NCBI GenBank assembly: GCA_963777505.1
Contig: CAVZQN010000005.1
Coordinates: forward strand, 64,001 to 128,000
DNA: 64,000 bases
Source of the DNA: an uncultured bacterium
GTDB taxonomy: Bacteria > Acidobacteriota > HRBIN11 > JAKEFK01
Direction of reading: 5' to 3'
The position numbers and the translations under genes were made by a program. Below are positions 23,194 to 58,028 of this stretch, one piece after another. The notes under the pieces are model-generated. The model was not told the origin of the DNA. It ran no database searches and was given only the letters and a program-made list of their open reading frames with translations. The first letter of the stretch is position 1. Each line of letters begins with the position of its first letter.

Positions 23194-26100
23194 TTAGCGT
23201 ATTTGCGGTAAAAGTTCTTCAAAACACGTACCAAGAGCAACGATCAATTGATCCCCATCCATTTTTGAAAAAGGCATTGGTGGGCGGATTTTGAGAACGT
23301 TATGGAAAGGGCCATCGGTGCCGAGCAAGACTCCGAGTTCGCGCATACGATTCACTATGTATGACGCTTCCTCGCTTGCCGGTTCAAGAGTTTCACGATT
23401 GCGAACCAGTTCTACTCCAAGGAAAAGACCGGAGCCGCGCACATCGCCAATCAACGGATAGTTCAGTTGCAGCTGTTTCAACTGTTGCAGCATGTAGGAC
23501 CCAACATTTAATGCATGATCTTGAAGTTTTTCTTCCAAAACAATTTTAAGAACGGTCAATCCGATTGCACACGAAACAGTGTTGCCGCCGAACGTGCTGA
23601 AAAACTCCATCCCATTATCAAAGGACGCTGCAATTTCTTTTGTTGTAACTACAGCACCGATCGGATGTCCGTTGCCGATAGGCTTTCCTAAAACAACAAT
23701 GTCAGGCACGACGTTTTGTGATTGAAATCCCCAGAAGTGTGTGCCGATACGTCCGTAGCCTGTTTGTACTTCATCTGCAATACAAACTCCGCCTGAATCT
23801 CGCACGCGTTTATATACTGCTGAAAGATAACCATCCGGAAATAAGATTTGTCCACCGACACTCGGACAGGATTCAGCAAGAAATCCTGCAATCCCTTTAT
23901 TTGTCCGAGCAATTATTTCAGAAATTTCCGCTGCATGGTTTTCAATGGTTTTTTTATTACGATACGGATCTGCAAGTGAAGCAACATGAACCCAATCGGG
24001 TGTGCCTTCGCCGCCTGGGCCATTGTGTTTATAGGGGCTTATGTCGATCAAAGTTGTGGTTATACCGTGATAAGCAGCATCGAGGACTATCATGTCACGA
24101 CGTTTTGTGTGAGCACGCGCAAGCCTGATTGCAAGTTCGTTTGCTTCGCTTCCGGAATTTACGAAAAAACAAACACGTAATGGTTCAGGAAGCGTGCTAC
24201 ATAATTGTTCCGCATACAGATTGATCAGATCATGCAGGTAACGCGTATTCGTGCTTAAAACATTCATTTGTTGTTGCGCAGCTTTTACGACACGGGGATG
24301 GCAATGACCAACATGCGGAACATTGTTGTAAGCATCGAGATATTTCTTTCCATTTTCATCGTACAAATACTGCATCCAGCCGCGAACAATCTTGACAGGA
24401 TTACGATACGAGAGCTTTACGTTTGCGCCTATTGCATTTTTGCGATCCGCGAGAGTCTCTCCCTTCGATGCTTCGGAAATGGGAAGTTTCAAAATCAAAT
24501 TTGGATCGGGTGAGAAGGCAGACCAGACTTCGCGTTCGCTCGCACGAAAAACACCGGGAAAATCGCAATCAAGTTCCAGCGGATCCAGGATGATTTGAAG
24601 ATGCAAATGAGTAGGCCATCCACCATTCACATCTTGTTCGCCGATGGTTCCCAGCTGTTCACCGGCAGAAATTTGTTTCCCAACTGAAAAGCTCGCAAGT
24701 GATTCAACATTGAGATGCCCATACAAGACATAAAAAGTATGCCCAGCATTCGTTGAATGTTTCAAAATCACAAGAGCCCCATAATCCTGAGGCCCTGTGT
24801 TGTTCGCAAATGCATGTACTTCACCGTCAAGTGGTGCAAATACTTTCGTGCCTGGTTCTGCAAAAAGATCCATTCCCATGTGGATCGTACGTCTTTCAAG
24901 CGAGGGGTGTGTGGATGCAAAAACTTCTGATGTATAGAGATTGCGCGGCTCATTGTATCGTCCGACTGCCACACGAACATTCGCGGAGTTCTTTTCCTGC
25001 AAAATGCGTTGACCTAATTGGGTTGCTTCATTCTCGAGTGCATTGCCGCTGAGAAGAGGGCTTGAATAACTTAAATCCAACACAATGAAGGGTTCTTTAT
25101 GCAAATCAATATCTAATACAGATCGGAAAGAATTTGCGTTGAGCCAATCACAAATAGCTTTAACATTGCGCAACGCAGGTAACCCGCAGGCATGTCGTAA
25201 TGTCGCTTCTGCAAATCTTGGATGGATCTTACTTATTTGAGGCAAAGTATTACGGATTGAGCGCTGACTGATCGTTAGATATTCATCATTCGGCCGCTGC
25301 TTTTGTTGATCTGCTGCGATGCAAATGCTCATACACAACCGTAGGCAAACAAATCCCCACAGTGACGAAAGTTCAGCTTCAGTTAGCGGATAAACCTGAT
25401 GATAACCGCGGACGATGATTGCGGCTGTTTCAAGTGGATCCGGTTTGTTCAGGATTGCATACGCAATTGCGATAGCCAGATTGCAGACAGTATAGCTGTA
25501 AACCATATCGCCGAAATCAAGAATTCCAACAATCTTCTGGTTTCGGGTGAACAAGTCATTTCCACCGCCTGCAAGAATATTGTGATCATTTGCGTCATTG
25601 TGAATGATGCTACGGCGCAGAGACTTGATGTTGGGCAGCGTTGTGCGTTTAAATTCCGTTGCTAATGTGTTCACAAGATCACGGATTGGTGGATCTTCGA
25701 TCAGCGCTTCATATTGATTGATAATCTGTAATCCGTTTGCGAGGTCCCAATAAAAATCGCGATGGAGGGAAGGATGATCAAAATCCGCGAGGGCATGATC
25801 AAGCGTTGCAACCGCACGTCCAAGATCCTCAAGTAAATCAGGTGAATGCCGTTTGACATTCGCGAGTGGAATGCCATCCAGATAATGCACTAAACGAACG
25901 AGGTGGGATTGTCCATCTTTCGATGTAGTTTCAACCGCGAATTCACCGGTCCGCGCTTTTACGATGCGAGGACACAGATCCGTATGTTTAGAAAGATGAA
26001 TCAGGGCTTGATTCTGTGCTTCCAGCAATCCGCGATCATCAGCAGAGCTTGAAATTTTTAGTACATACTTTTTGCCATCATCTGCTTCCAGCAAAAAGTT

Positions 26101-26211
26101 CTGATCTCTCTCGCTGGGCAATGGCTGCGCTGTTGCTCGAATGCCATAAAGCTGTAGTGTGAGGTTAAGAGCATCCTCCATTGTGAAACGTGGAGCATTT
26201 TGCAAATTCAT
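23194..26211 (-). CDS. Fusion of APH-like kinase, M23 peptidase-like domain and class-III PLP aminotransferase (hydroxylysine kinase/phospho-lyase-like)
   Basis: [16 protein letters not shown] and DFGD (kinase). HMGMD and HLH (M23). [28 protein letters not shown] and STFGGN (aminotransferase). Confidence 0.92.
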
Positions 26212-26266
26212 ATAAATAGTATGAACCACAAAGGCTCAAAGCGCCTCAGCGACTCTGCGGTTCATG

Positions 26267-34966: not shown

Positions 34967-37320
34967 TTAATCGACCGGAAGGTTCAATTGTTTCAAAAAC
35001 ACCGGCCAGCGTGGATCGTCTTGAAGATTTTGAAGCAGGGGATCGCCTTTTATTTCTGTAACGCCGCCATCACGATTCTTGTAGGCGAGTTCTAACCATT
35101 CAAACGCTTTGTCCTTTTCTCCGCGAAAGGCGTAAATTTCTGCAACCTGAAAATAAACATCATCAGAAAATGTTTCGATGAATTCATTTAACGTAGCATC
35201 GGCTTCCTTTTTCTTTCCTACGGCATGATAGTAAAGTGCCAGTGCTTGAGTTCGCCAAAAAGGTTCGGCCTCCATCTGTATTTCGGTAAAAGCTTTTTCA
35301 TGTTGCGATTGAAGAAGATAAATCGTTCCTAATGTGGAGTGCACTGCTGGAGCTTGTGGGCTTAATTCGAGGGCTTTTCGGAATGCAGCCTCCGCTTCAT
35401 TAAACCGTTTTGCGTAATACAAATGTATACCCAGGTTACTGTATGTGGCCGATTGCAAAGGGTCCAGTTCGATTGCGCGACGTCCGAGTGAAATCGCTTC
35501 ATCCAAACGTCCCATAATTGCTGCCAGGAGTGCTGCCGTACGCATGGCAAGCGGATTTTCAGGTTCCAACTCCAGTCCGCGCTTGCAAGCTTCACTTGCA
35601 GCAGTCCAATCCCAAACATAACTCATCTGAACATGTGCCATTTGTGCATGAGCTTCAGCCAAGTTTGGATCGAGTTGCAATGCCTTCTCGACCGTTTTTA
35701 GTGCTTTCTCTTGAAGCATTTTCGGTACGTTGCTAACATTCTGTAGACTGCGATAGGTTCTGGACAATCCAACCCAGGCCGGAGCGTAGTTCGAATCGAT
35801 CTTTAGCGCTTGCTCAAAATAGCCGACCGCTTTTTCCAAATTCTCCCTTGTGCGTCGCTCTAGAAAGTACTGCCCCTGCAAATATGCATTGTATGCTTCA
35901 ACACGGGTCTGTTTTGTTTTGAGATTTTGGTCTCCATGGAGCGTCGCTTTTAATGCTTCTGACACCGATGCAGCAATTTCATCCTGAACGGCAAAAACGT
36001 TCTCCATCTGACGGTCATATGTTTGTGACCATAGATGCGAATCGGATGATACTTCAATTAATTGAGCGGTGATCCGCAATTGATTTCCTGATTTGCGAAC
36101 ACTTCCCTCCAGAACGTGCGTGACTTTCAGCTTTTCAGCGATCGTCTTCATGTCCGTTTTTGTTCCCTTAAATGAGAACGCAGAAGTGCGGGAAGTTACC
36201 TGAAGCTTTGGGTTTTTTGCCAGCACATTAAGCAACTCTTCGGATAGTCCATCGGAAAAATATTCTTGTTCTTTGTCTGGACTCATGTTCGTAAATGGCA
36301 AAACTACGATCGCCGTCTTTGTTGTTGTTGGCGAGTTGACGGGTTTTGAATCACGACGAAAGTACAGGATGGAAGCGATCAATAGTACTACAAAGATAGT
36401 ACTAACAGGAATCCAAAGGCTCATCTTTTGTGGGGCGCGGGGCAGTGAGTCAGTGGTTGAAACATGCATTGTATTCCGTTTCAGCCGTTGCAAATCGGTC
36501 CGCATCTCCGCAGCACTCTGGTAGCGTAAAGTCCGATCCTTTTCGAGCGCTTTTGCGATGATCCGTTCCAGGTCTGCCGGTACTTTTGAATTCCAACGAA
36601 TAGGCGCAATTGGCTCTTTAGTGAAAATTAATTCCAGAGTTTCTCCGGTTGTTTTGCCTTCAAACGGAAGTTTGCCCGTTGCCATTTCGTAAAGCACAAT
36701 TCCAAAGGAAAGAGATCGGAGCGCGGATCGAGTTCCTGTCCACGGGCTTGTTCAGGTGACATATAGGACACCGTACCCATTGTCGATCCACTTTTCGTCA
36801 GTTGTTCCAGCGCGCTGGCTGTTGGTATTTCAGTTTCGGTTGGTAGCAGACCCGATTGTTTGGCCAATCCAAAATCGAGGAGCTTTCCTTGTCCCCGTTC
36901 TGTCACAAAAATATTTGCCGGTTTTATGTCTCGATGAATGATGTGTTCCGCATGTGCCGCATCAAGTGCATCTGCAATTTGGGATCCGATTTCAAGGATC
37001 TGATCGATTTCCATTGAACTTCCGTTGATCGCATGTTTTAAGGTTTTGCCTTTCATCATTTCCATTGCGATGAACGGACGTCCCTCGTGTTCGCCGACCT
37101 CATGGATGGTGCAAATGTTTGGATGATTTAATGCGGATGCCGATTGAGCTTCTCTACGGAAACGCTCCAGAGCTTCTGGGGTTGCGACTAAATCCTCGGG
37201 TAAGAACTTCAAAGCAACATGACGTTTGAGGTTCAAATCCTCTGCTTCATATACCACGCCCATACCGCCACCGCCAAGCTTATTTAAAATGCGGTAATGT
37301 GAAACTGTCTCCCCGATCAC
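34967..37320 (-). CDS. Ser/Thr protein kinase - TM - TolB-like - TPR (frameshift at about 36710)
   Basis: [29 protein letters not shown] and [13 protein letters not shown] motifs, plus TPRs. One missing base in the run at 36709-36711 breaks SDLFSFG. Confidence 0.9.
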
Positions 37321-44888: not shown

Positions 44889-47320
44889 TTAATCCACCGG
44901 AAGTTTCATTTTTTTCAGAAACGCCGTCCACCGTGGATCACGCTCAAGGCTGCGCAGCAGCGGATCGCCTTTCATTTCGCTCAGGCCGCCGTCGCGTTGT
45001 TTGTAGGCGCGCTCGAGCCACTCGAAGGCTTTGTCCGTTTCGCCACGGTAAGCGTAGATCTGAGCAATCTGGAATGCTGCACTCACTCTGAAATTTGTCA
45101 ATGATACTCCGCCAGTGCAGCATCGGCTTCCTTCTTCTTTCCTGAGGCATGATAGGCAAGTGCAAGTCCTGTACGCGCGCCAGCGGGCTCCGGTTCTTTC
45201 TGGATCTCGGCAAGTGCTTCTTCTGATTTGGATTGCATCAAATAGAAGAGGCCCAGAGCACCTGTGCGTACCAGGAAATTGTGGGTTCAGCTCCAGAGCC
45301 TTCCGGAACGCTGCATCAGCTTCTTCCAATCGTCCGGCGGAATATGAAGTGATTACCCAGATTGCTGTATGTTGTGACTCGGAGCGGATCGAGCTGGATT
45401 GCACGGCGGTCGAGCGGGATCGCCTCGTCGTAACGACCAAGCGTTGATGCAAGGGCAGCTGCGCCGCGGACGACATCCGTATTTCCTGGCTCAAGCTGCA
45501 ATGCACGCTGGTAGGCTGCATCAGCACCGGTCCAGTCCCAGTCGTAATTGCCCAGCTTAATCCATCCAATCTGTGCATAAGCCTCGGCCGAGGTTTGGAT
45601 CCAGTTCCAGCGCCTTTTCTGCTTCCTTTCTGCGCTTTTGCAAGTAACCTTCGTCTACAGGCACGTAGCCAGAATCGGCCTGAGCGAAGTGTGCACCGTG
45701 GACAATCCCGACCCAGGCTGCGTGCATAATTCGGGTCGATCTGCAGCGCCTGCTCGAAGTAGTCCAGTCGCGTTTTCGAGATCTTTCTTGGTCGCGACGG
45801 TCGCGGAAGTAGCGTCCTTGCAGGTACGCGTTATAGGCTTCGGGATTTGTCTGCTGTGCTTTTGGATTCTGTCCGCCGTCCAGCGTTACTTTCAACGCTT
45901 CTGATACCGATCCAGCAATTTCATCTTGAACAGCAAAGATATTTTCCATCTGCCGGTCGTAAGTCTGCGACCACAGATGCGAGTCGGTTGATACTTCGAT
46001 CAACTGCGCGGTAATTCGCAACTGGTTTCCAGCCTTCCGAACACTCCCTTCTAATACATGCGTCACATTCAGTTCTTTGGCGATTTTTTTGATATTGACT
46101 TCTTTCCCTTTGAAAGAGAAGGCGGAGGTGCGCGAAGTAACTTGCAGTTTCGGATTTCTTGCAAGCACGTTTAGCAGTTCTTCGGTCAGTCCATCGGAAA
46201 AGTATTCTTGCTCTTTGTCCGCGCTCAAGTTGGTAAACGGCAGAACGGCAATGGCGGTCTTGCTGGTTGCTGCAACCGGCGCGGCCGTTTTCGGCTGTTC
46301 GCGTTTGAAGAGGAAGAATGCTACTGTGAATAGTACTACAACGATAGCAGCAATGCCGATCCATACTCCCATCTTTTTCGGAGGGCGGCCCTCCGTGGCC
46401 GCCGTTTCAATGGCGGGCAGGGACGCCTGCCTCCGTGCAGGGAGGGCCCGCACCACATTCGAAAACGATGTATCACGTTTCAATCGCTGCAAATCGGTGC
46501 GCATTTCTGCTGCACTTTGATACCGCAGATTGCGATCCTTCTCCATTGCCTTTGCAATAATTTCTTCAAGCTTTGCAGGAACTTTCGGATTCAATCGCAC
46601 AGGTGCAGCAGGCTCCTTAGTAAAGATTGCTTCCAGCGTTTCACCGGTGGTTTGACCGCCGAAGGGGAGTGCACCGGTTACCATCTCATAAAGCACTACA
46701 CCAAATGAGAAAAGATCGGTGCGCGCATCCAAGTCTTTTCCGCGTGCTTGTTCGGGAGACATGTAAGCAACAGTCCCCATGGTCGATCCACTCTTGGTCA
46801 GTTGTTGCGGTTCACTGGCTGTTGGCATTTCAGTATCTGTTGATTCGATGCCGCTTTGTTTGGCCAAACCGAAATCGAGGACCTTTGCCTGTGCGCGTTC
46901 GGTAACGAAAATATTGGCTGGCTTTATGTCGCGATGAATGATCTTTTTCGCATGAGCTGCATCGAGTGCATCCGCAATCTGTGATCCCAGTTCCAGAACT
47001 TGATCGATGTCCATCGGCTTTTGATTGATCGTATGCTTGAGCGTCTTTCCTTCCATTAGCTCCATCGCGATAAACGGACGCCCTTCATGTTCACCGATTT
47101 CGTAGATCGTACAAATGTTTGGATGGTTGAGTGCCGATGCAGATTGCGCTTCGCGGCGGAACCGTTCCAGCGTTTCGGGAGTCTTTGCCAGATCCTCAGG
47201 CAGGAATTTGAGCGCCACATGACGTTTGAGGTTAAGATCTTCCGCCTCATACACCACGCCCATTCCGCCACCACCGAGCTTATTTAAAATACGGTAATGA
47301 GAAACGCTTTCCCCGATCAC
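44889..47320 (-). pseudogene. Ser/Thr kinase - TM - TolB-like - TPR paralog with multiple frameshifts in the TPR region
   Basis: Intact kinase and TolB-like parts closely match 34967-37320. TPR motifs are scattered over three frames at about 45050-45800. Same C-terminal LPVD. Confidence 0.8.
46380..46452. repeat. Nested REP-like palindromes inside kinase linker (in frame)
   Basis: GGCGGCC-CTCCGT-GGCCGCC, and GCGGGC..[CCTGC-CTCCGT-GCAGG]..GCCCGC. Absent from the paralog. Confidence 0.7.
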
Positions 47321-47494: not shown

Positions 47495-50400
47495 TCAGGC
47501 TGAAATCTTTTCAAATCGCGGGGTGCGATACCCTGAGTGTTGAATCAGGTGTTGCGCTATACCCATAAAATCTTCGCCATAACGTTCCTCAAGCTGGCGA
47601 GTGGATTCTTCCAGTTTTTCAAAATGTTCCATTTCGTTTTGTAGTTCAACAAGTTTCTGTAAACTAACGCGATACGCTTCGAGCGATTTTCTTGCGTTGC
47701 CTTGCACCATTTCCGCAAACGGTTCGAATATTCCGAACTGATCTGCGACGTCTGCTGGGATGTGGTTATTACGCAGTTCAGCTAATCCTGCTTGATAATC
47801 GCCATGGACCATAGACTGGAACAGTGGCTGTGCGGACGTCAGCATGCTCAACAACTGTTGCACGTCTGTTCCTGCGAATGCATTGAGTCCTGAAAAATTG
47901 TTCAAAGTTGAACGAAGATCTCCACTTGCAATCGCGTTCAAGAATCTAGATCCTGACCGTGTCAGATCATTCACCATCTGAAATTGCGGCGAGCCAAGGA
48001 TCTGGTTTGCTGATGCTGAGATTTGACCGACTGCTTGCGACAGACCGCCACCGCCGATTACTTGCAGGAATCCGTTTTCACCACGCAGTACATTTACGAG
48101 TTGCTGCGGATTGCCGCTCCCTAACGCTCCAATCAAATTTGATACCTGACCGAGCGAATTAATAAGACTTGCACCAGGTCCGGCGTTCAGCAATTCATGG
48201 CTTGTAAGTAAACTGCCAACTGCTCTACCGTAGTCGCCCTTGCTCAAGGAATTAACAAATCCTAATCCGTCATTCACCCAACCTAAAGCCCGCGCAGCAT
48301 CAGGATTATTGGCAATGAACGGGGCCAGTTCATTGGAAACAATTCCAAGCGCCTTGCTTGCATCTCCACTTGCAATTGCATCGATGAATGGAGCAGCTTT
48401 TTGGCTGTACTGAGTAACTTGCTGAATGAGGGGGTTATTACCTAAGACAGGTCCTAAAACTCCGGTGGCGCCATTCACAATTCCTGTAACATCGCCACGG
48501 CTGATTCCATCTGCTAGGGCGAATGTTTTCTTTGCATATTCCATTACTGGACCGGAACCGACTCCTGCAAAACTACCGACCGCTCCTAGAACATTTCCAT
48601 CTGCTACACTCGTTCCAATGCCGATAGCTGCTTGACCTACTTTACCAGCGGTAGTAAAAGCTGCTTTTGTTGCGCCACCAATTGCAGCACCCACACCGGG
48701 AAGTGCACTGGCCATGTTTGAAAACATTCCCAGTACGTCACCTTTCGCGGCTGACATGGCTGCTTTTACGCCGAAATAAATTCCACCAATCACATTCCCT
48801 ACACCAGGAACACAAGCAACAACTGCCATTGCTATATCAGCGATCGGTCCAAGAGATGCAATAAAATCCTCTGTGAAACTGGTTGGAACTGGATACATAC
48901 TGCGAGCGGCTTCACTAACGTTACCCAAATGTTGAGTGAATGCACCGGTTGAATTCTCAAATTTCGCGATTCTTGCGCGCAATTCCTGAGCTTCCCGACT
49001 GTTCGGTCCTAATGTTCTTTCTATAGTGGCAAGCTGATGTTTGAGCGGACCGACAATGGCCTGACTGTGGCCATGCATTTGCTCGGCTCCTTTGCCATAA
49101 ATGTGAGCCATCCGTTTTGTTACAAGTCCACTCATTTCTTGTTCTGTAAGGCCATACTTAACCCGAAGTGAATCCATTTTCTGAGTCATATACTTTTCTC
49201 GGGCTTCCTTTAGATCAAGGTCATTTTGCTGTGCATATTCCTGGACCTTCTGTTCGAAATCAGGAGCGCTTGCGATTCTGTTTGCTTCAGCTGTTAATTC
49301 AGTGAAATCCATCTTCGGATGACCCTTGAGTTCACGATCACGCTGAATGAGTGCAAGCTCATTTTCGGCCTGTGGATCCTCATCAAGAGCGTACATATCC
49401 TTCGCCATGTCTTTTTTAACTTTGCCCGCTGCTTGATTGCCTGCCTGCTGGAGTGGATCATTGGCGTCATTTGGATCCATCTTGTATTCCGGACCCACTG
49501 CATCAACTTCGTTCTCCGTCGGATTGCGGGTAGCGGTATATTCTGCATGCTTTTTTGGATCCGCTAATATGTTCTCGTGTTGCTTGGCAAGCGCTGGATC
49601 ATCGGCTAATTCGGTTCGTCCCCATCCCCCCATTAGCTTATTGATTTTTTCTTTGCTTTCATCATCATCCATGTCATTGAGAATTTCTTTTCCGCCAACC
49701 AGATTCACAAGCTCATCAAACTCTGCCTTATCTTTGCAGCTTAACAGGATTCTTTTAATCGCAGCATCCTGATGATCTTTTGTATAACCACGCTGAAGTT
49801 CTTTGATTAACTTTGCCTTCTCGCCTGGTGTTGCAACTTTCATAGCGTCTTTGTCTTCCGATAGTTTGACCGCAAGATCGGAATCTTCATACATTGCCGC
49901 ACGCCCAAATGCTTCGCGATATTCTTTTACTTTTTCAGGCGGCAAACCATAACCTAGTTTGGGCATATCAAAACGCTTTGCCACTGCCTCGAGCCGTTTT
50001 AATAGTTCAGGATCTTTGACCTGGTGTTTCAGATCCAGGCCGCCGAGTTCAGTTGCCAGTTCTCTAGCCTCTTCGGGTGTTTCGCACTTTTCTAACATCT
50101 CGATAGCTTTAGTTGCTGATTCTTTTTCTGTATTAATCCACTTGCTTTCAGCTTCTTTGAACCATTGCTTTGCCTGATCTTCTTCAAGTTCGTCGAAAAC
50201 TAAATGGCCTCCTGCAAGTTCCGTAACTTTGTTCCATTCGGCTTTGGAATTTACGCTAGCGCAAATTCTTGCGATAGAGCAGTCTTGACTTCCATCGGTA
50301 TCTCCATCCATCAGTTGCTTGATGAGCTTCGCTTTTTGTTCAGGAGATAGTTTTTTTAGCATTTCAGGGTCATTAGAAATCCTTTCGGCTTCTTCGTCAT

Positions 50401-51271
50401 CGGCACAGGCAATTCTGTCATCAATCTTTTTTTGATCTTCTGCGGAAACCTTGGGCTTCTTTGATTCGTCAATTTTTCCGCCAGCAAGGCCGCCTGAATC
50501 TTTAAGCTTTTTCGCTTCTTCCATACGTTTTTGATGTGCAGCCGGATCTCCAGAACCAAACTCTGTTACCTTTTCGCCTTCAGAAAGCTCACCGGATTCC
50601 GGATCTAATTCACTTTTTTCTGTTTTTGTAGATGTCGATTTTTTTGGATTAAATGCATCGGGCGAATATCCAAGAGGCATTTGGCCGGGTCGTCCTTGTA
50701 ATGCAGAGAGCATCATTGCAAATTGTCTAAGGATTTCACCCATTGGATCTCCTGACTCGGCTTGATTGCCAGCCGGCTGCGCAATCTTTTCAGAAATCGT
50801 TTCGTGAAGGGTGGTCTCTGCCTGATCACCTGCATCTAACAGATCAAACGCAGCACGTGTATCCATTTCAGGTGGTAATGACAAGTTTTGAGCTTGAGAA
50901 AGAATCATGTCTAGTTGTTGAAAGGCTTCCAACATCGGATCAGACTCTGGTAAACCTTGTAGATGCTGCTCAAGATTGCGGATTTGTCTGCTAAGTTCGG
51001 AGAGCGGCACCTGGCTCTCTTGAACTACCGCTTTCTTTGATGCGGTTGTGTCCATTTTCAAAAACTGATTTTGTAAAATTTGAGCGGTCAGAGTTTCTAT
51101 TGCTCTGATCTGTTGTCTTTCAGTTCGAATTCCCTGTTCCGTTTGTGGCTGATGAGACGTCTCGCTATGAATCAGCGCTTCGTCTTCTGATAGTTGATCA
51201 ACAGAAGCTTGATCCAGTTTTTCCGCTAAGATTTGCGCAAGTTGTTGATTGTTGTTTGTGCTGCGAATCAT
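47495..51271 (-). CDS. 1258-aa hypothetical protein: annexin-like helical repeats, hydrophobic Gly/Ala-rich region, C-terminal coiled coil; putative secreted translocator/effector
   Basis: AAGGAG RBS and no signal peptide. Duplicated KAKLIK.L..G.T...QD..I.RI unit. Hydrophobic IADIAMAVVACVPGVGNVIGGIYFGV. Repeated xxGD/GN helical units. The CDS is solid; the function is inferred. Confidence 0.85.
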   Translation of the reverse strand: MIRSTNNNQQLAQILAEKLDQASVDQLSEDEALIHSETSHQPQTEQGIRTERQQIRAIETLTAQILQNQFLKMDTTASKKAVVQESQVPLSELSRQIRNLEQHLQGLPESDPMLEAFQQLDMILSQAQNLSLPPEMDTRAAFDLLDAGDQAETTLHETISEKIAQPAGNQAESGDPMGEILRQFAMMLSALQGRPGQMPLGYSPDAFNPKKSTSTKTEKSELDPESGELSEGEKVTEFGSGDPAAHQKRMEEAKKLKDSGGLAGGKIDESKKPKVSAEDQKKIDDRIACADDEEAERISNDPEMLKKLSPEQKAKLIKQLMDGDTDGSQDCSIARICASVNSKAEWNKVTELAGGHLVFDELEEDQAKQWFKEAESKWINTEKESATKAIEMLEKCETPEEARELATELGGLDLKHQVKDPELLKRLEAVAKRFDMPKLGYGLPPEKVKEYREAFGRAAMYEDSDLAVKLSEDKDAMKVATPGEKAKLIKELQRGYTKDHQDAAIKRILLSCKDKAEFDELVNLVGGKEILNDMDDDESKEKINKLMGGWGRTELADDPALAKQHENILADPKKHAEYTATRNPTENEVDAVGPEYKMDPNDANDPLQQAGNQAAGKVKKDMAKDMYALDEDPQAENELALIQRDRELKGHPKMDFTELTAEANRIASAPDFEQKVQEYAQQNDLDLKEAREKYMTQKMDSLRVKYGLTEQEMSGLVTKRMAHIYGKGAEQMHGHSQAIVGPLKHQLATIERTLGPNSREAQELRARIAKFENSTGAFTQHLGNVSEAARSMYPVPTSFTEDFIASLGPIADIAMAVVACVPGVGNVIGGIYFGVKAAMSAAKGDVLGMFSNMASALPGVGAAIGGATKAAFTTAGKVGQAAIGIGTSVADGNVLGAVGSFAGVGSGPVMEYAKKTFALADGISRGDVTGIVNGATGVLGPVLGNNPLIQQVTQYSQKAAPFIDAIASGDASKALGIVSNELAPFIANNPDAARALGWVNDGLGFVNSLSKGDYGRAVGSLLTSHELLNAGPGASLINSLGQVSNLIGALGSGNPQQLVNVLRGENGFLQVIGGGGLSQAVGQISASANQILGSPQFQMVNDLTRSGSRFLNAIASGDLRSTLNNFSGLNAFAGTDVQQLLSMLTSAQPLFQSMVHGDYQAGLAELRNNHIPADVADQFGIFEPFAEMVQGNARKSLEAYRVSLQKLVELQNEMEHFEKLEESTRQLEERYGEDFMGIAQHLIQHSGYRTPRFEKISA

Positions 51272-51355
51272 AATTCTTTCTCCTTACTCAGGAACCTTAG
51301 TTCCAATTATTTTTTGACTAGCACTTTTCAATTTCTGTGCCTCACATTCCCCTTA

Positions 51356-51371
51356 AGCAATCGCCATACCA
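51356..51371 (-). promoter_or_regulatory. Sigma54 (-24/-12) promoter for the 1258-aa gene
   Basis: Minus strand TGGTATGGCGATTGCT matches TGGYAYG-N4-TTGCW, 85 nt upstream of the ATG. Confidence 0.75.
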
Positions 51372-51457
51372 TGCTTGGAATTGTGCCAACACGAGGATGC
51401 TACTGATGAAGCCACTGGAATGGTTCAAAGTCTTTTTAGCGGAAACGCTAAAATGTT

Positions 51458-51471
51458 TGGCAATTTTGCCA
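51458..51471. promoter_or_regulatory. Palindrome, candidate enhancer (UAS) for a sigma54 activator
   Basis: TGGCAATTTTGCCA, about 90-110 bp from both sigma54 promoters. Confidence 0.5.
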
Positions 51472-51577
51472 CTCTAAGCTGAGTCCTGCTGAAAAAAATC
51501 TTCTTCTAACTTCAAGAAAAATTTACATGCTCTCAATAACTTAAAATCGTCCTGCCAAATTCATGTTGAATACCGTC

Positions 51578-51593
51578 TGGCATGCTGTTTGCT
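51578..51593 (+). promoter_or_regulatory. Sigma54 (-24/-12) promoter for the 696-aa gene
   Basis: TGGCATGCTGTTTGCT is a consensus match, 44 nt upstream of the ATG. Confidence 0.8.
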
Positions 51594-51637
51594 AAACGAT
51601 GTGAGGCAACAAAAATAAATAGCCGGGAGAAGAAAAA

Positions 51638-53728
51638 ATGATTAGAAAAATTGATGGCGCGTTCACCGGAACGATTGCTCAATCTGCAGAGCCAGCTAGC
51701 GCAGAAAAAACAAACCAACCAATTCTTGAAAATGCAAAGCAGGTCATTGAAAACTCAAATTTGGCTGTTCGCGAAGATGCTAAAGCACCCCCCGATCTGC
51801 GTAACACTCAACTTCAAGAGAGTGCGCTGGCCGGACAAACAATGGCAGTGCGACTTTCATCAATGATTACATCTTCGCCTGTCACAGAAACAGAGACCGA
51901 TAAGAAGCCTCCGAAATCCACAGAAACTGCGGCGCCGCGTGAACTATCCCGGTGGAAAAATAATGAAGGTACAGACGTTGAGAGTATGCAAACACAGATT
52001 AATGAATGGAGGGCACAAAATGGAAAACCTCCAATTAAAGTAGACGGCAAATTTGGAGCAGAAACCGAAAAAGCAGTGATTGAATTTCAAAAGGCAACAG
52101 GTCTGAAGGCAGATGGAATTGTTGGAGCGAATACACGCAGCAGACTTCAATTAGAGAATGACGCCAACTTCCGAGCGTTGCCGGATGCGACTAAAAAAGA
52201 AGTTCGCGACTCTATGAACAAATATCAAAAAGATCCTGCAGCACGTGAAAATCTTCATGAACTTGCAACCAGTTCAGCTTTTAAGGGTATGTCACGCGAT
52301 GGCCAGGAGCTTGCCCTCAAAAAACTGGCAAAGAACCCAGGAGATGTATCACATGCACAAGACGTGGGTGAGTATGCAAAGGATCGCTCTTACATGGAAT
52401 CGCATGGCAATTTCAAAGCTCTCGATGCTACATATAAAGAAAAAGTGCTGAAACAGTTTGATGGTTATGCAGGCAATGCGGAAGCACGACAATCCTTAAT
52501 GTATATCGCAACCGATGAAAGTTTTGTCAAATTGACCCCGGATCAAAAAGACAAAGTTCTTAAAGCTTACGCTGAAAATCCAAACTTTGAGACATCCGCC
52601 GATCTTCGCAAGGTTATCAGTAACGAAGCATTTGCTGGAATGGATGATTCGCTAAAAAACCGATCACTCGACATCGCCGTAAAAAATGCGAAAGATACGC
52701 AAGCCAGCTTCGATCTCGGGATGCTTTTTACGGAAGACAAGTTCGCTAGCTTGTCAAATGCTGATAAGGCGAAAGTGTTGAACGTATTTGAAAATGCTAC
52801 ACCGGCAGGCAGAAGAGAACTCCGCCACTTATTAAATAAGGAAGTAAATGGAAAGCCTGCTTTGTTGGCTACTTCTCCTGGCAGCAGTGCGACTACTCTG
52901 GATCATCTAAATCGTTTGGCTGAAACTCCTTTACATTCAGCGATCACAGACAGCACAGGCTCACCTCAAAACAAATCAAAAGTCATGGAGGATGTGCTGA
53001 AGGAGATCAACAAGCCGAGCCAAAATCTGAATCAAGGCAACAAAGGGACATGCACGGTTACCAGCATGACACACACTCTGGCAGAACAGAATCCAGCTGA
53101 ATATGCGCGCATCGTTACCGATCTTGCTACAACCGGACAATCTAAAATTGCGAATGGCAACACGATTACTCCACCCGCAGATGGATTCGCGCAGGACAAC
53201 AGTGATCGATCAGTCAGCGAGCGTCTGTTGCAGTCGGCTTTAATGAACTACGCTCGGCCGAGCGCAGGGTATCAAAATTGGAACAAAACCGGATTTCCGA
53301 CTTCCGGCGGCGGAACTGTTGATAATGGCTTTCCACCGAATGGAAGTGGTCTAGTTGCGGCTGATAACATGCGGATCATGCAAGGACTCTATGGAAAACA
53401 AATGGTAAATCATACCGATAAAGCTAAGCTTCAGGCCCAAATCCAAAACGAAATTAATAAAGGCAATGTTCCAATATTCACTGGGGTCAATTGGGGTGCG
53501 GGGCAGGCTCATGCTATTGAAGTTTTGAAAATTGAAAATGGCAGGGTTTATTTTAGGAACCCACATGGGCCGGGAGCGGTATCTTCAAATGGCACAATGA
53601 TGGGTACTGCTGCCAACAACACGAATGCCGGACCGTTGCGCCGAACCGAAGACAGCGCCAATGGCGTCCAATCAATGACCATTAACGATTTCAATAACGC
53701 TGTGAGAGACATCATCGTTGCGAAGTAG
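51638..53728 (+). CDS. Peptidoglycan-binding domain + helical repeats + papain-fold cysteine peptidase-like domain
   Basis: [32 protein letters not shown] (PG_binding_1). Six F-x-x-L/M repeats. QGNKGTC (C472), HAIEV (H625) and RNPHG (N641). No signal peptide. Confidence 0.85.
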
Positions 53729-53738
53729 GAGTAAAATC

Positions 53739-54587
53739 ATGAATACAAATATGGAATTGAATCATAGTATGCTCTTTGTCCCTGCTGGAGAATTTAGCAT
53801 GGGCATCTCCACGGAACAGGCTGATCAATTTGCGCAAAAATTTCTGAATCTTGAATCCGGAATGAACCCATATCTCTTCTACAATGAAATTCCGGTGCAT
53901 CCAATGAAGCTTAAGGCATTCTTGATCAGCAAGAACGAAGTCACCAATCAAGAATATTTGAAATTCGTTCAAACAGGAGGCTATCAAAACCCAGACTATT
54001 GGAAAGAACTGATTTCAGTCGAAGAACCGAACGTGCCAGGAAGCGGCGCAGACAGGATCCAGGTTTTTGTGGATAAGACCGGTAAACCAGGTCCGGCTGT
54101 TTGGCAGGATGGAACATTTGTAAAAGGAAAAGGGGATCATCCTGTTGAGGGGGTATCATGGTATGAAGCCGCAGCCTATTGCCGGTGGAAAAAAGTACGT
54201 TTACCAAGCGAGGCAGAGTGGGAATATGCAGCGAGAGGAACGGATCAGCGTATATTTCCCTGGGGTAATACGTATGAGATTTTGCAGCAGCTGAATTCCG
54301 GTGAATCGAATGAAGTTTCCGGAGCTGGCGCAAGGCAAGATAAGAGTCCCTTTGGGTTGGTTGATCTTGCGAAGAATGTGTCGGAATGGGTTAACGATTC
54401 ATGGGCTTTATATATAGGATGTCCAATCGCCGTGCAATCGTATGATGAACCGATGGGGGTTGTGAGAGGTGGAAACTATTATTCTTCACCCTATGAAATG
54501 AGAACAACCTTCAGGAAAATGCGACCACGTTCAGATCGATCTGCGGGTATTGGATTTCGTTGTGCAGTGGATTCGGTTCGGCAGTGA
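53739..54587 (+). CDS. FGE-sulfatase (SUMF1/EgtB-like) domain protein
   Basis: VPAGEFSMG, EVTNQEY, HPVEGVSWYEAAAYC, RLPSEAEWEYAARG, NVSEW, RGG and GFRCA motifs. AGGAG RBS overlaps the upstream stop. Confidence 0.92.
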   Translation: MNTNMELNHSMLFVPAGEFSMGISTEQADQFAQKFLNLESGMNPYLFYNEIPVHPMKLKAFLISKNEVTNQEYLKFVQTGGYQNPDYWKELISVEEPNVPGSGADRIQVFVDKTGKPGPAVWQDGTFVKGKGDHPVEGVSWYEAAAYCRWKKVRLPSEAEWEYAARGTDQRIFPWGNTYEILQQLNSGESNEVSGAGARQDKSPFGLVDLAKNVSEWVNDSWALYIGCPIAVQSYDEPMGVVRGGNYYSSPYEMRTTFRKMRPRSDRSAGIGFRCAVDSVRQ

Positions 54588-54755: not shown

Positions 54756-57700
54756 ATGAGAAGATTGATTGCCATATTTCTGCTTTTATTTGCGCTGAGA
54801 CAAATTACAGACGCGGCCGAGCAGCCGTATCTTTTTCAAAGCCCGACGTTAAGCAAAACGCAAATTGCGTTTGCATTTGCAGGCGATCTATGGATTGTCG
54901 GACGTGATGGTGGACGCGCGAGCCGTCTAACGACCGGGCCGGGAATCGAGTCACATCCATACTTTTCACCGGATGGATCATTGATTGCTTTCACAGGTCA
55001 ATATGATGGCAATACAGACGTCTTTGTAGTTTCTGCAAATGGCGGTGTGCCACGGCGTCTGACTTATCATCCGGGTGAAGATCTAACCGTTGGCTGGACG
55101 CCGGATGGTACGAAAATTCTGTTCCGATCAGCGCGCTTCAGCGCTCGCGATACACATATATTATTCACGGTTGCACCCTCCGGTGGATTTCCAATAGAAC
55201 TTCCACTGCACAGGGCCGATCACGGCAGTTATTCTCCCGACGCTCAACGGCTTGCCTACGTTCCATTTTTCCCCTGGCAGCCTGCGTGGAAACGATATCG
55301 CGGCGGACAAACCAAGCCGATCTGGATCGCAAATCTAAAAGATTCCAGCGTTGAGCCACTTCCACGCAATAATTCCAATGACTTCAATCCGATGTGGATC
55401 GGAAACGCAGTCTACTTTCTCTCCGATCGCGAAGGTGCATTCACACTCTTCCGCTATGACCTTTCCAGCAAACAAGTAGAAAAGGTTTTGCCAAATGACA
55501 GTTTGGATTTGAAATCAGCAACTGCCGGCCCTGGTGGAATTGTGTATGAGCAGTTTGGCTCGATTTATTTGTTTGATGTTGCAGCAAACAAATCGAAACA
55601 GATTGCAATTACGCTGGAAGGCGATCTTCCTGAAGTCAGACCTCATTTCCAAAAAGTAGAAGCTGCAACATTATCCAATGCCGCCGTTTCTCCAACTGGA
55701 GTAAGAGCTGTCTTTCAAGCCCGCGGAGAAATCATCACCGTTCCTGGAGAGAAAGGAGACATCCGCAATCTCACACGAACGCCCGGCATTGCGGAACGCG
55801 ATCCCGCATGGTCTCCTGATGGGAAATGGATCGCCTATTTTTCTGATGAATCGGGCGAATATTCCTTGCACATCCGGAATCAAAATGGTCTGGGAGATGT
55901 GCAGAAAATCAATCTTGGAAATCCGCCGTCCTTCTTTTATAAACCGCAGTGGTCGCCTGACTCGAAAAAAATCGCATATACCGATAAGCGGTTAAACGTC
56001 TGGTATGTGGACATCGCAAAACAGAGTCCGGTGAAAGTTGATACTGATTACTACGAAAGTTTTATTCGCGAGCGCGATCCGGTATGGTCACCCGATAGCA
56101 AATGGATTGCATATCCAAAATTTCTCCGAAATCATTTGCATGCGATCTTCATTTACTCGCTTGAGTCGGGAAAGAGCAATCAAATAACGGATGGCATGAG
56201 CGACGCACTGTACCCACAGTTTGATGACAATGGCAAATATTTGTATTTTGCCGCCAGTACTGATATCGCACTATCTGTTGCATGGTTGGACTTGTCGAGC
56301 GTCGACCGTCCTGTCACACGGTCGATCTATGCAATCGTGCTTGATAAAGATGAGCCCTCACCGGTCGTTCCGGAAAGCGATGAAGAGAAGGGGGCTGCCA
56401 AAGCGGAAGAAACTAAAGATAAGGAGAAGAAGGAAAAAAAGGTTCCGATAGTCCAAGTCGATTTTGAAAATATCGGACAACGAATCGTTGGTTTGCCGAT
56501 TCCTGCGCGGAATTACATCGCAACGGCTTCCGGTAAAGAAGGAAATCTCTTTTTAATGGAAGGTAGTCCTGTGCTTCTTTCCGTTGCAGATGAAATCCCT
56601 ACGATGACTGTTTACAAATTTGATCTGAAAGGCAGGAAGACGGACAAATTTCTGGAAGGCATCAAATCTTTTTCGGTTTCTGATGATGGCGAAAAAATGC
56701 TGTATGCGAAAACGGAAAAGTGGTTTTTTGCACCTTCGGAGAAGCCTCCAAAGCCGGAAGATGAAAAAGAATTACAGTTGGATGCTCTTGAAGTTTACGT
56801 TCAGCCGAAGGAAGAGTGGGCCCAAATGTATCGCGAAGTTTGGCACATCGTTCGCGACTTCTTTTATGATCCGGGATATCACGGGCTTGACATCAATGCT
56901 GCCGAAAAATTTTACGCAAGTTTTCTACCGAACATATCCAGCCGCACAGATCTGAACTATTTATTTGAAGAAATGTTGGGCGAATTAACGGCTGGTCATG
57001 TCTTTGTGGATGGTGGCGAAACGCCAGAGATCAAGAAAGTAAAAGTCGGGCTTCTTGGGGCCGATTATAAGATTGAAAATGGTCGATACCGTTTTGCACG
57101 CATTTACAATGGCGAGAATTGGAATCCACAGCTACGCGCCCCACTAACTCAGCCAGGAGTGAATGTTTCCGTAGGTGAATATTTATTAACCGTAAACGGT
57201 CAGACCGTAGATGCTTCGAAAGAGATTTACAGCTACTTCGAAGGAACTGCGGGAAAATCGACGATCCTTCAAGTAGGAAAAGATCCGGACATTAAAAACA
57301 GCAGGGAAGTGACGGTTGTTCCTCTAGAAAGTGAGACGAATCTACGATACCTGGCATGGATTGAAGGAAATCGTCGCAAAGTTGATGAGCTCAGCGGCGG
57401 ACGTGTTGCGTACGTTCATTTGCCTGATACGTACAGCGGAGGTTACTCGAATTTCAATCGATATTATTTTGCACAGGTTGGAAAAGAAGCAGCTGTGATC
57501 GATGAACGGTTCAATCATGGCGGAGATATTGCTGATTACGTTGTTGATTATTTGCATCGCCCTGTGATGAGCTTGATGATGACGCGCGAAGGTTCGCAAA
57601 TGGCAAGCCCCTTTAGTTCGATTTATGGTCCAAAAGCAATGATCATCAATGAAATGTCTGGTTCCGGTGGAGATGCGATGCCCTGGTACTTCCGAAAAGC

Positions 57701-58028
57701 GGAAATCGGTCCGTTGATTGGTAAAAAAACGTGGGGTGGCCTGATCGGGATTTATGATTATCCTGAGTTGATGGATGGTGGATCCATTACTGCACCCCGG
57801 ATTGCGATTTACGGACTCAATGGCGAATGGGAAGTAGAGAATGTTGGAATCTCGCCCGATATCGAAGTCGAGGACGATCCCAAAAAAGTCCGGGAAGGGC
57901 ATGATCCTCAATTAGAAAAAGCGGTTGAAGTGGTGCTGGATCTGCTGCAAAAAAATCCACTTCAAAAATATAAACAGCCCGCGTACCCGAATTACAATCA
58001 GAAAATAAATCAGACTAAGCCGGAATAA
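54756..58028 (+). CDS. Tricorn protease homolog (S41 family, PD40 repeats, PDZ)
   Basis: Signal peptide, GDLW, RRLTYHPG, DERFNHGG, SGSGGD and GKKTWGGLIG motifs. Confidence 0.95.
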   Translation: MRRLIAIFLLLFALRQITDAAEQPYLFQSPTLSKTQIAFAFAGDLWIVGRDGGRASRLTTGPGIESHPYFSPDGSLIAFTGQYDGNTDVFVVSANGGVPRRLTYHPGEDLTVGWTPDGTKILFRSARFSARDTHILFTVAPSGGFPIELPLHRADHGSYSPDAQRLAYVPFFPWQPAWKRYRGGQTKPIWIANLKDSSVEPLPRNNSNDFNPMWIGNAVYFLSDREGAFTLFRYDLSSKQVEKVLPNDSLDLKSATAGPGGIVYEQFGSIYLFDVAANKSKQIAITLEGDLPEVRPHFQKVEAATLSNAAVSPTGVRAVFQARGEIITVPGEKGDIRNLTRTPGIAERDPAWSPDGKWIAYFSDESGEYSLHIRNQNGLGDVQKINLGNPPSFFYKPQWSPDSKKIAYTDKRLNVWYVDIAKQSPVKVDTDYYESFIRERDPVWSPDSKWIAYPKFLRNHLHAIFIYSLESGKSNQITDGMSDALYPQFDDNGKYLYFAASTDIALSVAWLDLSSVDRPVTRSIYAIVLDKDEPSPVVPESDEEKGAAKAEETKDKEKKEKKVPIVQVDFENIGQRIVGLPIPARNYIATASGKEGNLFLMEGSPVLLSVADEIPTMTVYKFDLKGRKTDKFLEGIKSFSVSDDGEKMLYAKTEKWFFAPSEKPPKPEDEKELQLDALEVYVQPKEEWAQMYREVWHIVRDFFYDPGYHGLDINAAEKFYASFLPNISSRTDLNYLFEEMLGELTAGHVFVDGGETPEIKKVKVGLLGADYKIENGRYRFARIYNGENWNPQLRAPLTQPGVNVSVGEYLLTVNGQTVDASKEIYSYFEGTAGKSTILQVGKDPDIKNSREVTVVPLESETNLRYLAWIEGNRRKVDELSGGRVAYVHLPDTYSGGYSNFNRYYFAQVGKEAAVIDERFNHGGDIADYVVDYLHRPVMSLMMTREGSQMASPFSSIYGPKAMIINEMSGSGGDAMPWYFRKAEIGPLIGKKTWGGLIGIYDYPELMDGGSITAPRIAIYGLNGEWEVENVGISPDIEVEDDPKKVREGHDPQLEKAVEVVLDLLQKNPLQKYKQPAYPNYNQKINQTKPE

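Follow-up and report, generated by a model that had tools for sequence, protein, structure and literature searches.

The DNA analyzed here, which we call the window, is a 64-kb stretch (C5:64001-128000) of the 5.23-Mb, 14-contig assembly (G000) of an uncultured member of the Acidobacteriota, rated 95.9% complete. At issue are three genes arranged around an intergenic spacer of 366 bp (51272-51637): on one side a gene for a protein of 1258 residues and on the other, pointing away from it, a gene for a protein of 696 residues that is tightly followed by one for a protein of the formylglycine-generating enzyme (FGE)-sulfatase fold (Table 1). An initial annotation, made from the letters alone, had described the three as a co-regulated module of a translocator-like protein, an envelope-attacking effector and a partner, exported by machinery encoded elsewhere. 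What it had seen at the locus holds: two sigma54-type sites face outward from the spacer, the 1258-residue protein has a hydrophobic core rich in Gly and Ala, the 696-residue protein combines a peptidoglycan (PG)-binding domain with a Cys-His-Asn set, both large proteins lack a Sec or Tat signal and start MIR with polar N-termini, and Pfam scans found no secretion machinery encoded within the 64-kb window. What it had drawn from these features fared less evenly. Our results support the idea, from conservation and modeling, that the 696-residue protein and the FGE-fold gene form a conserved functional pair; they set the 1258-residue protein apart as what appears to be a separate family, and they find the putative export machinery in relatives of this organism. 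The open reading frame (ORF) of the FGE-fold gene covers 289 residues from a TTG and overlaps the 696-residue gene by 11 nt. An ATG at 53739, 10 nt past the stop of the 696-residue gene and giving 282 residues, is probably the true start, because the N-termini of seven relatives fit it better.

Table 1. Genes, domain and promoter-like sites at the locus (positions within the window)
Feature	Position	Strand	Basis
Gene for 1258-residue protein, predicted all-helical, of a rare unnamed family	47495..51271	-	ORF, search, model, composition
Gene for 696-residue effector-like protein	51638..53728	+	ORF, Pfam, alignment, AlphaFold2, VIA
Calpain-like protease domain (residues 420-696); co-varies with FGE-like gene	52895..53725	+	alignment, loci, VIA
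Gene for FGE-sulfatase-fold protein, candidate cognate inhibitor/immunity protein	53718..54587	+	Pfam, relatives, complex prediction
Sigma54-type promoter-like site TGGCATGCTGTTTGCT	51578..51593	+	pattern match, 45 nt before the ATG of the 696-residue gene
Sigma54-type promoter-like site TGGTATGGCGATTGCT	51356..51371	-	pattern match, 85 nt before the ATG of the 1258-residue gene
Gene for Ser/Thr protein kinase; context only, possible regulatory input	45557..47320	-	Pfam; 174 nt downstream of the 1258-residue gene
Gene for 229-residue tetratricopeptide repeat (TPR) protein; context only	44889..45578	-	Pfam; overlaps the kinase gene by 22 nt

The 696-residue protein opens with a conserved, disordered leader (residues 1 to about 100) that begins MIRKIDG and holds a helix at residues 52-78. 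In its AlphaFold2 model, which like the conservation analysis is based on an alignment of 66 sequences, the predicted local distance difference test (pLDDT) is below 50 at residues 1-48 and 78-92. Behind the leader lies a PG_binding_1 domain (PF01471, residues 111-170, Pfam E 4e-14, 52.9 bits against a cut-off of 23) that has the three-helix fold of this family, with binding itself a prediction, and that matches SleB, SleC and endolysin domains in structure (VIA Z 9-10.2, root-mean-square deviation (rmsd) 1.3-2.5). Some 225 residues of helical-hairpin repeats (residues 176-400) then lead to a compact C-terminal domain (residues 420-696), over which the model (pLDDT 87.7) is confident and in which Q466, C472, H625 and N641 are conserved in at least 90% of the 66 aligned sequences. 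No hydrophobic stretch was found in this protein or in the FGE-like protein; because their 19-residue hydropathy never exceeds 0.75, both lack a signal peptide or membrane segment. The lack of a signal peptide, together with the disordered, conserved leader, the PG-binding domain and a papain-fold protease domain, makes the 696-residue protein look like an exported effector that attacks the cell envelope, much as the initial annotation had supposed.

Judging by its model, the C-terminal domain is a papain-fold (clan CA-like) cysteine protease domain that comes closest to the calpains. Calpain cores rank at the top of its Foldseek matches, with a probability of 1.0 but weak E-values, and the best VIA match is the calpain-1 core 1tlo (Z 10.7, rmsd 4.2, 208 residues aligned). 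The C2 cores 1tlo, 2g8e and 6bkj score Z 10.4-10.7 over 206-210 residues and share with the domain the order Gln-Cys...His...Asn; they differ from it in that identity is 12-15% and the rmsd about 4.2 Å, and in that the 696-residue protein lacks the calcium-binding, penta-EF-hand parts and sits in a bacterial, PG-binding context. Against a calpain assignment stands the lack of any Peptidase_C2 match in this protein, Pfam scans at E up to 0.01 having returned only PG_binding_1 and three sub-threshold families, and for this reason the domain does not belong to the calpain family by sequence. One myxobacterial homologue bears the UniRef name 'Calpain catalytic domain-containing protein'. Other papain-fold proteases (ComA C39 domains, staphopain, streptopain, 8ssm and 9l5u) score VIA Z 8.5-10.1. 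Among them, 8ssm (Citrobacter rodentium CdiA-CT/CdiI; Z 9.0) and 9l5u (entered as a 'papain-like cysteine protease toxin/immunity pair'; Z 8.7) are papain-fold C-terminal toxins in which, as may be the case here, the toxin domain ends a larger delivery protein and a neutralizing gene is adjacent. They differ in delivery (contact-dependent inhibition for 8ssm, according to its entry title), in the size of the domain (about 130-140 residues against about 260 here, where calpain is the closest match) and in their immunity proteins, which the entry titles do not call FGE-fold.

The partner matches FGE-sulfatase (PF03781, Pfam E 1.5e-47), and its profile finds solved chains of FGE, EgtB and OvsA at E 1e-27 to 1e-34, with human and bacterial FGE at 1e-27 to 1e-32. 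The catalytic cysteine pair of a true FGE presumably lies in the segment between the RGG and GFRCA motifs, the 243-256 loop region of the partner. None of the 8 partners has a cysteine pair in this segment; six have no cysteine there and two have one. Copper-dependent chemistry, for which a true FGE requires two active-site cysteines that bind the metal according to the available text of Lopez et al. 2021 (bioRxiv 10.1101/2021.05.21.445229), is therefore unlikely in the partner. The pairing itself is conserved. In this genome each of the three calpain-domain paralogues is followed directly by an FGE-like gene, the three FGE-like genes being 49-53% identical to one another. The calpain-like domain is present in 5 genomes of a 401-genome phylum sample, and at 8 of the 11 loci from those five genomes an FGE-like gene follows directly; in metagenomes it does so at 12 of the 36 loci that extend at least 900 bp downstream, starting 37-296 bp past the match and beside proteases with identities between about 50% and 29%. 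Complex prediction with residues 420-696 and the partner gave ipSAE values of 0.00, 0.75 and 0.66 (median 0.66, against 0.00 for the best of three controls); the ipSAE mark is reached by 116 of 157 solved complexes and 2 of 215 mismatched pairs, which are rough counts with own alignments used. The runs share at least 19% of contacts, and partner pLDDT is at least 78. On the protease side the predicted interface involves residues 466-472, 621-625 and 643-651, which make up the catalytic cleft and include C472 and H625, and on the partner side loops 37-46, 229-234 and 248-253.

An FGE-like inhibitor has a precedent. In the available text of Lopez et al. 2021 (bioRxiv 10.1101/2021.05.21.445229), Tsi3 of Acinetobacter baumannii is an FGE-like protein without the FGE cysteines that gives immunity to Tse3, a type VI secretion system (T6SS) effector, by binding it, and about 98% of Tsi3-encoding bacteria possess a T6SS. 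We liken the two systems by these features: an FGE-fold protein without catalytic cysteines beside an effector, with relatives recurring in one genome. They also differ, in that this genome has no T6SS marker (VipB/TssC), in that the partner here is single, on the same strand and directly downstream whereas the genes for Tsi3 often occur in arrays and on the other strand, and in that the effector here is a predicted PG-binding, calpain-like protease whereas the function of Tse3 is given as unknown in that text. The conserved pairing, the predicted cover of the catalytic site and the Tsi3 precedent therefore lead us to read the two genes as a protease and its cognate inhibitor or immunity protein. 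Four results weigh against this reading. The FGE-like gene is absent at 3 of the 11 genome loci (a distant locus, a 390-residue form and a partial form); 24 of the 36 metagenome loci with room downstream have none, five of these (L047-L049, L051 and L052) resembling one another in the span and identity of their match; one complex run out of three gave 0.00; and the partner lacks a signal peptide, which is unexpected in a protein that guards against a wall-acting toxin arriving from outside. In two FGE-like ORFs of relatives, possible upstream starts would add a signal-peptide-like stretch; FGE-like partners mostly lack one.

The main rival account of the partner's role is that the FGE-fold protein is a modifying enzyme or an export chaperone and not an inhibitor, acting for instance on the catalytic cysteine or holding the protease in a secretable state. 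The tight coupling and conservation of the two genes would suit such a role, as would the cytoplasmic location expected of a chaperone. The predicted interface uses the 243-256 loop region of the partner and touches C472, and FGE-fold enzymes act on cysteines (Lopez et al. 2021, available text). However, the loop holds a cysteine pair in none of the 8 partners, cover of a whole cleft is typical of inhibitors, and FGE-like immunity has been published; an obligatory maturase would also be expected to be kept, whereas two-thirds of the metagenome homologues (24 of 36) have no FGE-like gene. We consider a modifying or chaperoning role unlikely, and favor inhibition.

The pair belongs to a larger family. 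The 696-residue protein has 10 paralogues in the genome (11 PG-binding members in total) with a common front end and differing C-termini, and a profile of the leader finds 5 further ORFs (E below 0.01) without the PG-binding domain, one of which has, by eye, another Cys...His protease-like C-terminus. The leader follows the pattern M-[IV]-x-[KR]-[IV]-x-G, continued by about 40-60 polar residues and a helix with E..[IL]xGQ...L, and the true starts of the paralogues are each preceded by a GGAG-type ribosome-binding site. What lies downstream changes with the C-terminus: the three calpain-class C-termini pair with three FGE-like genes, two class-B C-termini (75% identical) pair with homologous ORFs of 141 and 144 residues (45% identical), and one unique C-terminus pairs with a unique 197-residue ORF (C7:142563-143156) that, by eye, opens with a hydrophobic, signal-peptide-like stretch. 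Because a shared leader, variable C-termini and co-varying downstream genes come together in it, the family has, at the level of sequence, the layout of polymorphic toxin-immunity systems. Relatives in other genomes share the leader motif, as do homologues labeled Hyalangium by their sources (for example MIRRVDGG...). In its strict form the pattern fits 23 of 67 homologues, compared with 205 of the 4492 ORF starts that this genome has; some of the remaining homologues show near-variants of the motif or have doubtful starts. The open-access text of the literature on FGE-type immunity, polymorphic toxins, the Myxococcus Kil system and needleless type III secretion system (T3SS), and acidobacterial T3SS yielded no published description of this leader and protease family. 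Altogether, we favor the reading that the window holds a sigma54-driven effector-inhibitor pair within a polymorphic family, and consider it, on balance, probable.

Two observations concern individual members. In the same-genus genome G041, two protease-family genes (L023 and L026) appear broken into a leader fragment at the N-terminus (145 and 107 residues) and a remainder, which may reflect frameshifts or sequencing errors. In this genome, the leader-family member at C6:267238-268203 seems by eye to carry an annexin-like repeat (..GVGTDE..) ahead of the PG-binding domain, and the match to the PG-binding region there runs through a TAA stop.

The same domain order invites a different explanation, namely that the family members are the organism's own wall-remodeling or endolysin-like enzymes, released by lysis, a holin-like route or vesicles, and are not weapons. 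Phage endolysins such as phiKZ gp144 (3bkh) and that of Burkholderia phage AP3 (5nm7) are likewise built from a PG_binding_1 domain with a catalytic domain after it and have no signal peptide; the PDB sequence and fold matches of the PG-binding domain are to the phiKZ gp144, AP3 and LysT84 endolysins and to SleB/SleC; and no specialized secretion system was found in this assembly. The endolysins, which occur in a phage context, differ in lacking the 100-residue leader, the 225-residue repeat spacer, a cognate inhibitor gene and a multi-copy family. Here, in contrast, there are eleven paralogues with a 100-residue disordered leader, variable C-termini and cognate downstream genes, no phage genes lie near the protease-FGE pair or the family loci scanned, and T3SS markers co-occur with the family in other genomes. 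We find an endolysin-like role improbable.

Both sites in the spacer fit GG-N10-GC with TGGCA..TTGC flanks. The pattern TGG[CT][AT][CTG]N5TTGC, which bears on whether the motif seen by the initial annotation occurs elsewhere in the genome, has 204 matches there, 75 of them in the 8% that is non-coding by a crude ORF call and 61 facing a gene start within 300 nt. Because it is enriched in non-coding DNA and facing gene starts, the motif is a real signal in this organism, whose genome encodes rpoN and gives about 30 tblastn matches to sigma54-activator domains. Of the 15 leader-family genes examined, 4 have a sigma54-like site upstream, as does the 1258-residue gene. At C5:8316-15065, a gene for an FHA-domain sigma54 activator lies divergent from, and 176 nt away from, a leader-family paralogue that bears a sigma54-like site, and a gene for a 1141-residue Ser/Thr kinase converges on that paralogue. 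This arrangement suggests a control circuit for the leader family that would run from kinase to FHA-domain activator to sigma54.

Such control would also fit proteins that never leave the cell, with the PG_binding_1-like domain binding some other ligand and the pair acting as an intracellular protease and its regulator under sigma54 and kinase control. Calpains are regulated proteases of the cytoplasm; protease and partner lack an export signal, no specialized secretion system was found in the assembly, and Ser/Thr kinases and an FHA-domain sigma54 activator stand beside family members. Set against this are the strong PG_binding_1 match (E 4e-14) and the structural matches to wall-binding domains (Z 9-10), the combination of variable C-termini with cognate small partners that is typical of exported toxins, and the signal-peptide-like stretch seen by eye at the start of the downstream partner at C7:142563-143156. 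A purely intracellular role is, in our view, very improbable, and we retain the reading of an exported effector with its inhibitor.

For the export of these proteins the initial annotation had proposed a type III-like route encoded elsewhere, and it had expected a non-Sec secretion system in the genome. Relatives lend support to the first proposal. Five of the 6 genomes from the same family carry FHIPEP, and in the same-genus G041 a cluster (L036/L037, G041:C3:74000-114000) encodes SctV, SctU, SctT, SctS, SctR, SctN, SctL and SctJ, YscO-like and FliK-like proteins, FliO, an SctQ-FHA fusion, a small TPR protein and a sigma70-family factor. Its SctN has a T3SS ATPase C-domain, the SctQ-FHA fusion matches SpaO/YscQ best, and no flagellar rod, hook or filament gene is among the 33 ORFs scanned in the 40-kb region. 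The fusion is found in 6 of the 401 phylum-sample genomes, including all three other protease-family genomes, and in none of the four other genomes with the 1258-residue family (E at most 1e-20); the YscO-like gene is found in 24 of the 401, in G041, G071 and G096, and in all four of the other genomes with the 1258-residue family. A non-flagellar T3SS marker is therefore present in all seven other genomes with either family (three with the protease, four with the large protein), against 24 of 401 in the sample. In the four large-protein genomes one FHIPEP context is flagellar-like, with an FlhF-type GTPase beside it. A metagenomic protein of 659 residues (P0075) fuses a T3SS_HrpK1 match (HrpK1/HrpF, PF16937, 37.7 bits against a cut-off of 30.9) to the calpain-like C-terminal domain seen here.

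According to the available text of a 2025 study (Nat Commun, PMC12075869), the needleless T3SS* of Myxococcus xanthus cooperates with the Kil Tad pilus, is required for the lysis of prey and has effectors that are not known, and the available text of Abby and Rocha 2012 (PMC3459982) describes secretin-less T3SS in Myxococcales and only flagella in Acidobacteria. As far as its genes go, the G041-type cluster resembles T3SS* in being a non-flagellar export gene set without an evident needle or secretin, and leader-bearing homologues of the protease occur under the source names Hyalangium and Archangium. It differs in that the acidobacterial cluster is seen in relatives (G041 and others) and not in this assembly.

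That difference is the first of several findings that count against a type III route. In profile searches this assembly has no match to FHIPEP, VipB/TssC, Phage_sheath_1, WXG100 or VirB4, so that the expected markers of T3SS, T6SS, type IV secretion, sheaths and WXG100 proteins are all missing; three secretins are present. Tblastn with the G041 SctU, SctT, SctS, SctR, SctO, SctL, SctJ and a C-terminal fragment of SctV found nothing in the assembly, and G041 SctN found only ATPase matches of 27-31%. For this assembly, then, the non-Sec secretion system that the initial annotation had expected fails to appear. The proposed machine is in this way not found where the family's putative substrates are most numerous. 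Shared descent confounds the co-occurrence with T3SS markers, the three protease-bearing relatives belonging to one family, and because the genomes are related to one another the counts overstate independence. The leader profile, moreover, matches no protein of the G041 cluster (E above 0.1); a small cluster protein opening MKIKGPGG... resembles the leader by eye only. Absence of a T3SS from this organism is not proven, because the assembly is 95.9% complete and in 14 contigs. Over the 40 kb examined around the T3SS cluster, G041 has no nucleotide-level similarity to this genome, and with no synteny to compare, either loss or an assembly gap would account for the missing cluster. A T3SS-type route is a reasonable inference from relatives that this assembly, as it stands, contradicts, and we put it forward as a tentative possibility that falls a little short of being probable.

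Beside the G041 cluster lies a gene for a 182-residue TPR protein that matches the T3SS class II chaperones AcrH, PcrH and SycD end to end (E 1e-9 to 1e-8), with generic TPR proteins scoring higher. It has 5 homologues in this genome, three of them within 4 kb of leader-family genes and none beside the pair in the window. They include C7:84665-85810, C7:117676-118735, C7:165464-166473 and C5:6134-6661, and three are preceded by an unannotated ORF of 188-220 residues, an arrangement like that of a substrate with its chaperone. The 229-residue TPR protein of the window was considered as a T3SS class II chaperone and rejected, its PDB sequence matches being only to generic TPR proteins.

The 1258-residue protein starts with a polar N-terminus and continues with two repeated helical modules, a long coiled coil, a hydrophobic region and then further repeats. 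Residues 791-935, which hold the hydrophobic core noted earlier, are 17.9% Gly, 17.9% Ala and 11.7% Val (47% together), 19-residue hydropathy peaks at 2.09 over residues 802-835, and about eight repeats of some 42 residues (spacing 41-45) with an S/K-G-D motif follow. A model of residues 251-1258 (pLDDT 70.7) is all-helical and confident over its first 550 residues; pLDDT is below 50 at residues 799-928 and below 40 in the hydrophobic region, after which the repeats are moderately confident. Foldseek against the PDB finds only generic helical solenoids (E at least 0.002). By eye, the two helical modules resemble the annexin-like repeat of the leader-family member on contig C6. No Pfam or NCBIfam family matches the protein, a search of 5.8 billion proteins gave 13 matches including the protein itself and a 54%-identical paralogue on contig C1, and the best ESM Atlas scores (0.75-0.76) were too low to pursue. 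For its C-terminal half, 54 remote relatives turned up, and Pfam assigned a family to none of the 34 that were scanned; relatives of the protein lie in records titled Solibacteraceae, Bryobacteraceae and Acidobacteria.

These relatives bear on the proposal that the 1258-residue protein is a translocator or pore-former specific to the protease and its partner, the three forming one co-regulated unit. Several features are consistent with it: the genes are divergent with a sigma54-like site on each side, the 696- and 1258-residue proteins lack a signal peptide, the coiled coil precedes a Gly/Ala-rich segment (hydropathy 2.09 at residues 802-835), and a YscO-like marker is present in all four other large-protein genomes. 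T3SS translocators (YopB/IpaB; HrpK1/HrpF, PF16937) likewise are helical, without a signal peptide, and have a coiled coil before a hydrophobic segment; in contrast, the 1258-residue protein is two to three times larger, has one clear hydrophobic stretch with about 300 residues of SGD repeats after it, matches no translocator or other family, and has no class II chaperone gene adjoining. Its neighborhood tells against a dedicated role. At five other loci with relatives of the protein (L003 and L012-L015) there is no shared neighbor, and no protease or FGE-like gene is near any of them. Its family was found in none of six related genomes, three of which have protease-FGE pairs, and the protease family in none of the four other genomes that carry the 1258-residue family, so the two co-occur only in this genome. 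By the conservation of neighborhoods that the initial annotation had looked to, the three genes do not form one conserved module. A specific translocator seems to us quite unlikely, and a step less likely than a modifying or chaperoning role for the partner.

Membership of the leader family was also considered for the 1258-residue protein and rejected: against a leader profile from which it was left out it scores 1.1 bits, and an earlier match is discounted because the first profile had included the protein itself. In a 16-sequence test of the leader profile, its paralogue and one homologue reach 12.5 and 16.9 bits. From these comparisons the 1258-residue protein is, we conclude, a separate rare family and not a dedicated partner of the protease; a membrane-active role for it is plausible from its composition.

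How these parts might act together can be sketched as follows. We envision a scenario in which the 696-residue protease would be synthesized in the cytoplasm, with no Sec or Tat signal, from a two-gene, sigma54-driven operon, and in which the co-translated FGE-fold protein would cover the Gln-Cys-His-Asn site and so silence the protease, much as Tsi3 gives protection from a T6SS effector. The leader could then direct export by a non-flagellar, Myxococcus-type T3SS-like apparatus. Once delivered, the protease would be anchored by its PG-binding domain on the wall of a rival or prey cell, where it may cut wall-linked peptides or envelope proteins. The 1258-residue protein would be a separate sigma54-driven, membrane-active helical protein and might be a further substrate of this route.

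Acidobacteriota are abundant in soil, and little is known of their antagonism and secretion biology. An FGE-fold immunity protein outside a T6SS setting would be a new twist on known toxin-immunity logic and, if our reading is right, would extend such immunity from T6SS to another delivery context with a defined target, a calpain-like protease. The family would likewise offer a recognizable candidate cargo for the needleless T3SS whose cargo is given as unknown in the available text of the Myxococcus study (PMC12075869), and its presence in genomes with such a machine in two phyla makes the cargo question testable. Non-flagellar T3SS-like gene sets in about 6% of sampled Acidobacteriota also contrast with the flagella alone described in the available text of the 2012 survey (PMC3459982). 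The boldest version of this idea holds that the leader is the export signal of a needleless T3SS, that the family, which occurs in one Acidobacteriota family and in myxobacteria, comprises its lytic effectors with their self-protection proteins, including FGE-fold immunity outside T6SS, and that the 1258-residue protein is a second, membrane-opening cargo; taken as a whole we regard it as doubtful.

Other features of the neighborhood are of lesser moment. A relative of the window's Ser/Thr kinase lies near the paralogue of the 1258-residue protein on contig C1. A tricorn-protease-like gene (window 54756-58028, + strand) with PD40 repeats, Tricorn C1, PDZ and Peptidase_S41 domains lies 168 nt 3' of the FGE-like gene and is not kept beside the protease-FGE pair at other loci. 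At window 34967-37320 (- strand), a 230-residue protein-kinase ORF overlaps the start of a same-strand 576-residue TPR ORF by 70 nt, and the two may be one gene split by a frameshift or a mis-called start. A 1011-residue ORF (window 23194-26229, - strand) joins an APH-type phosphotransferase, a Peptidase_M23 and a class-III aminotransferase domain in an unusual combination.

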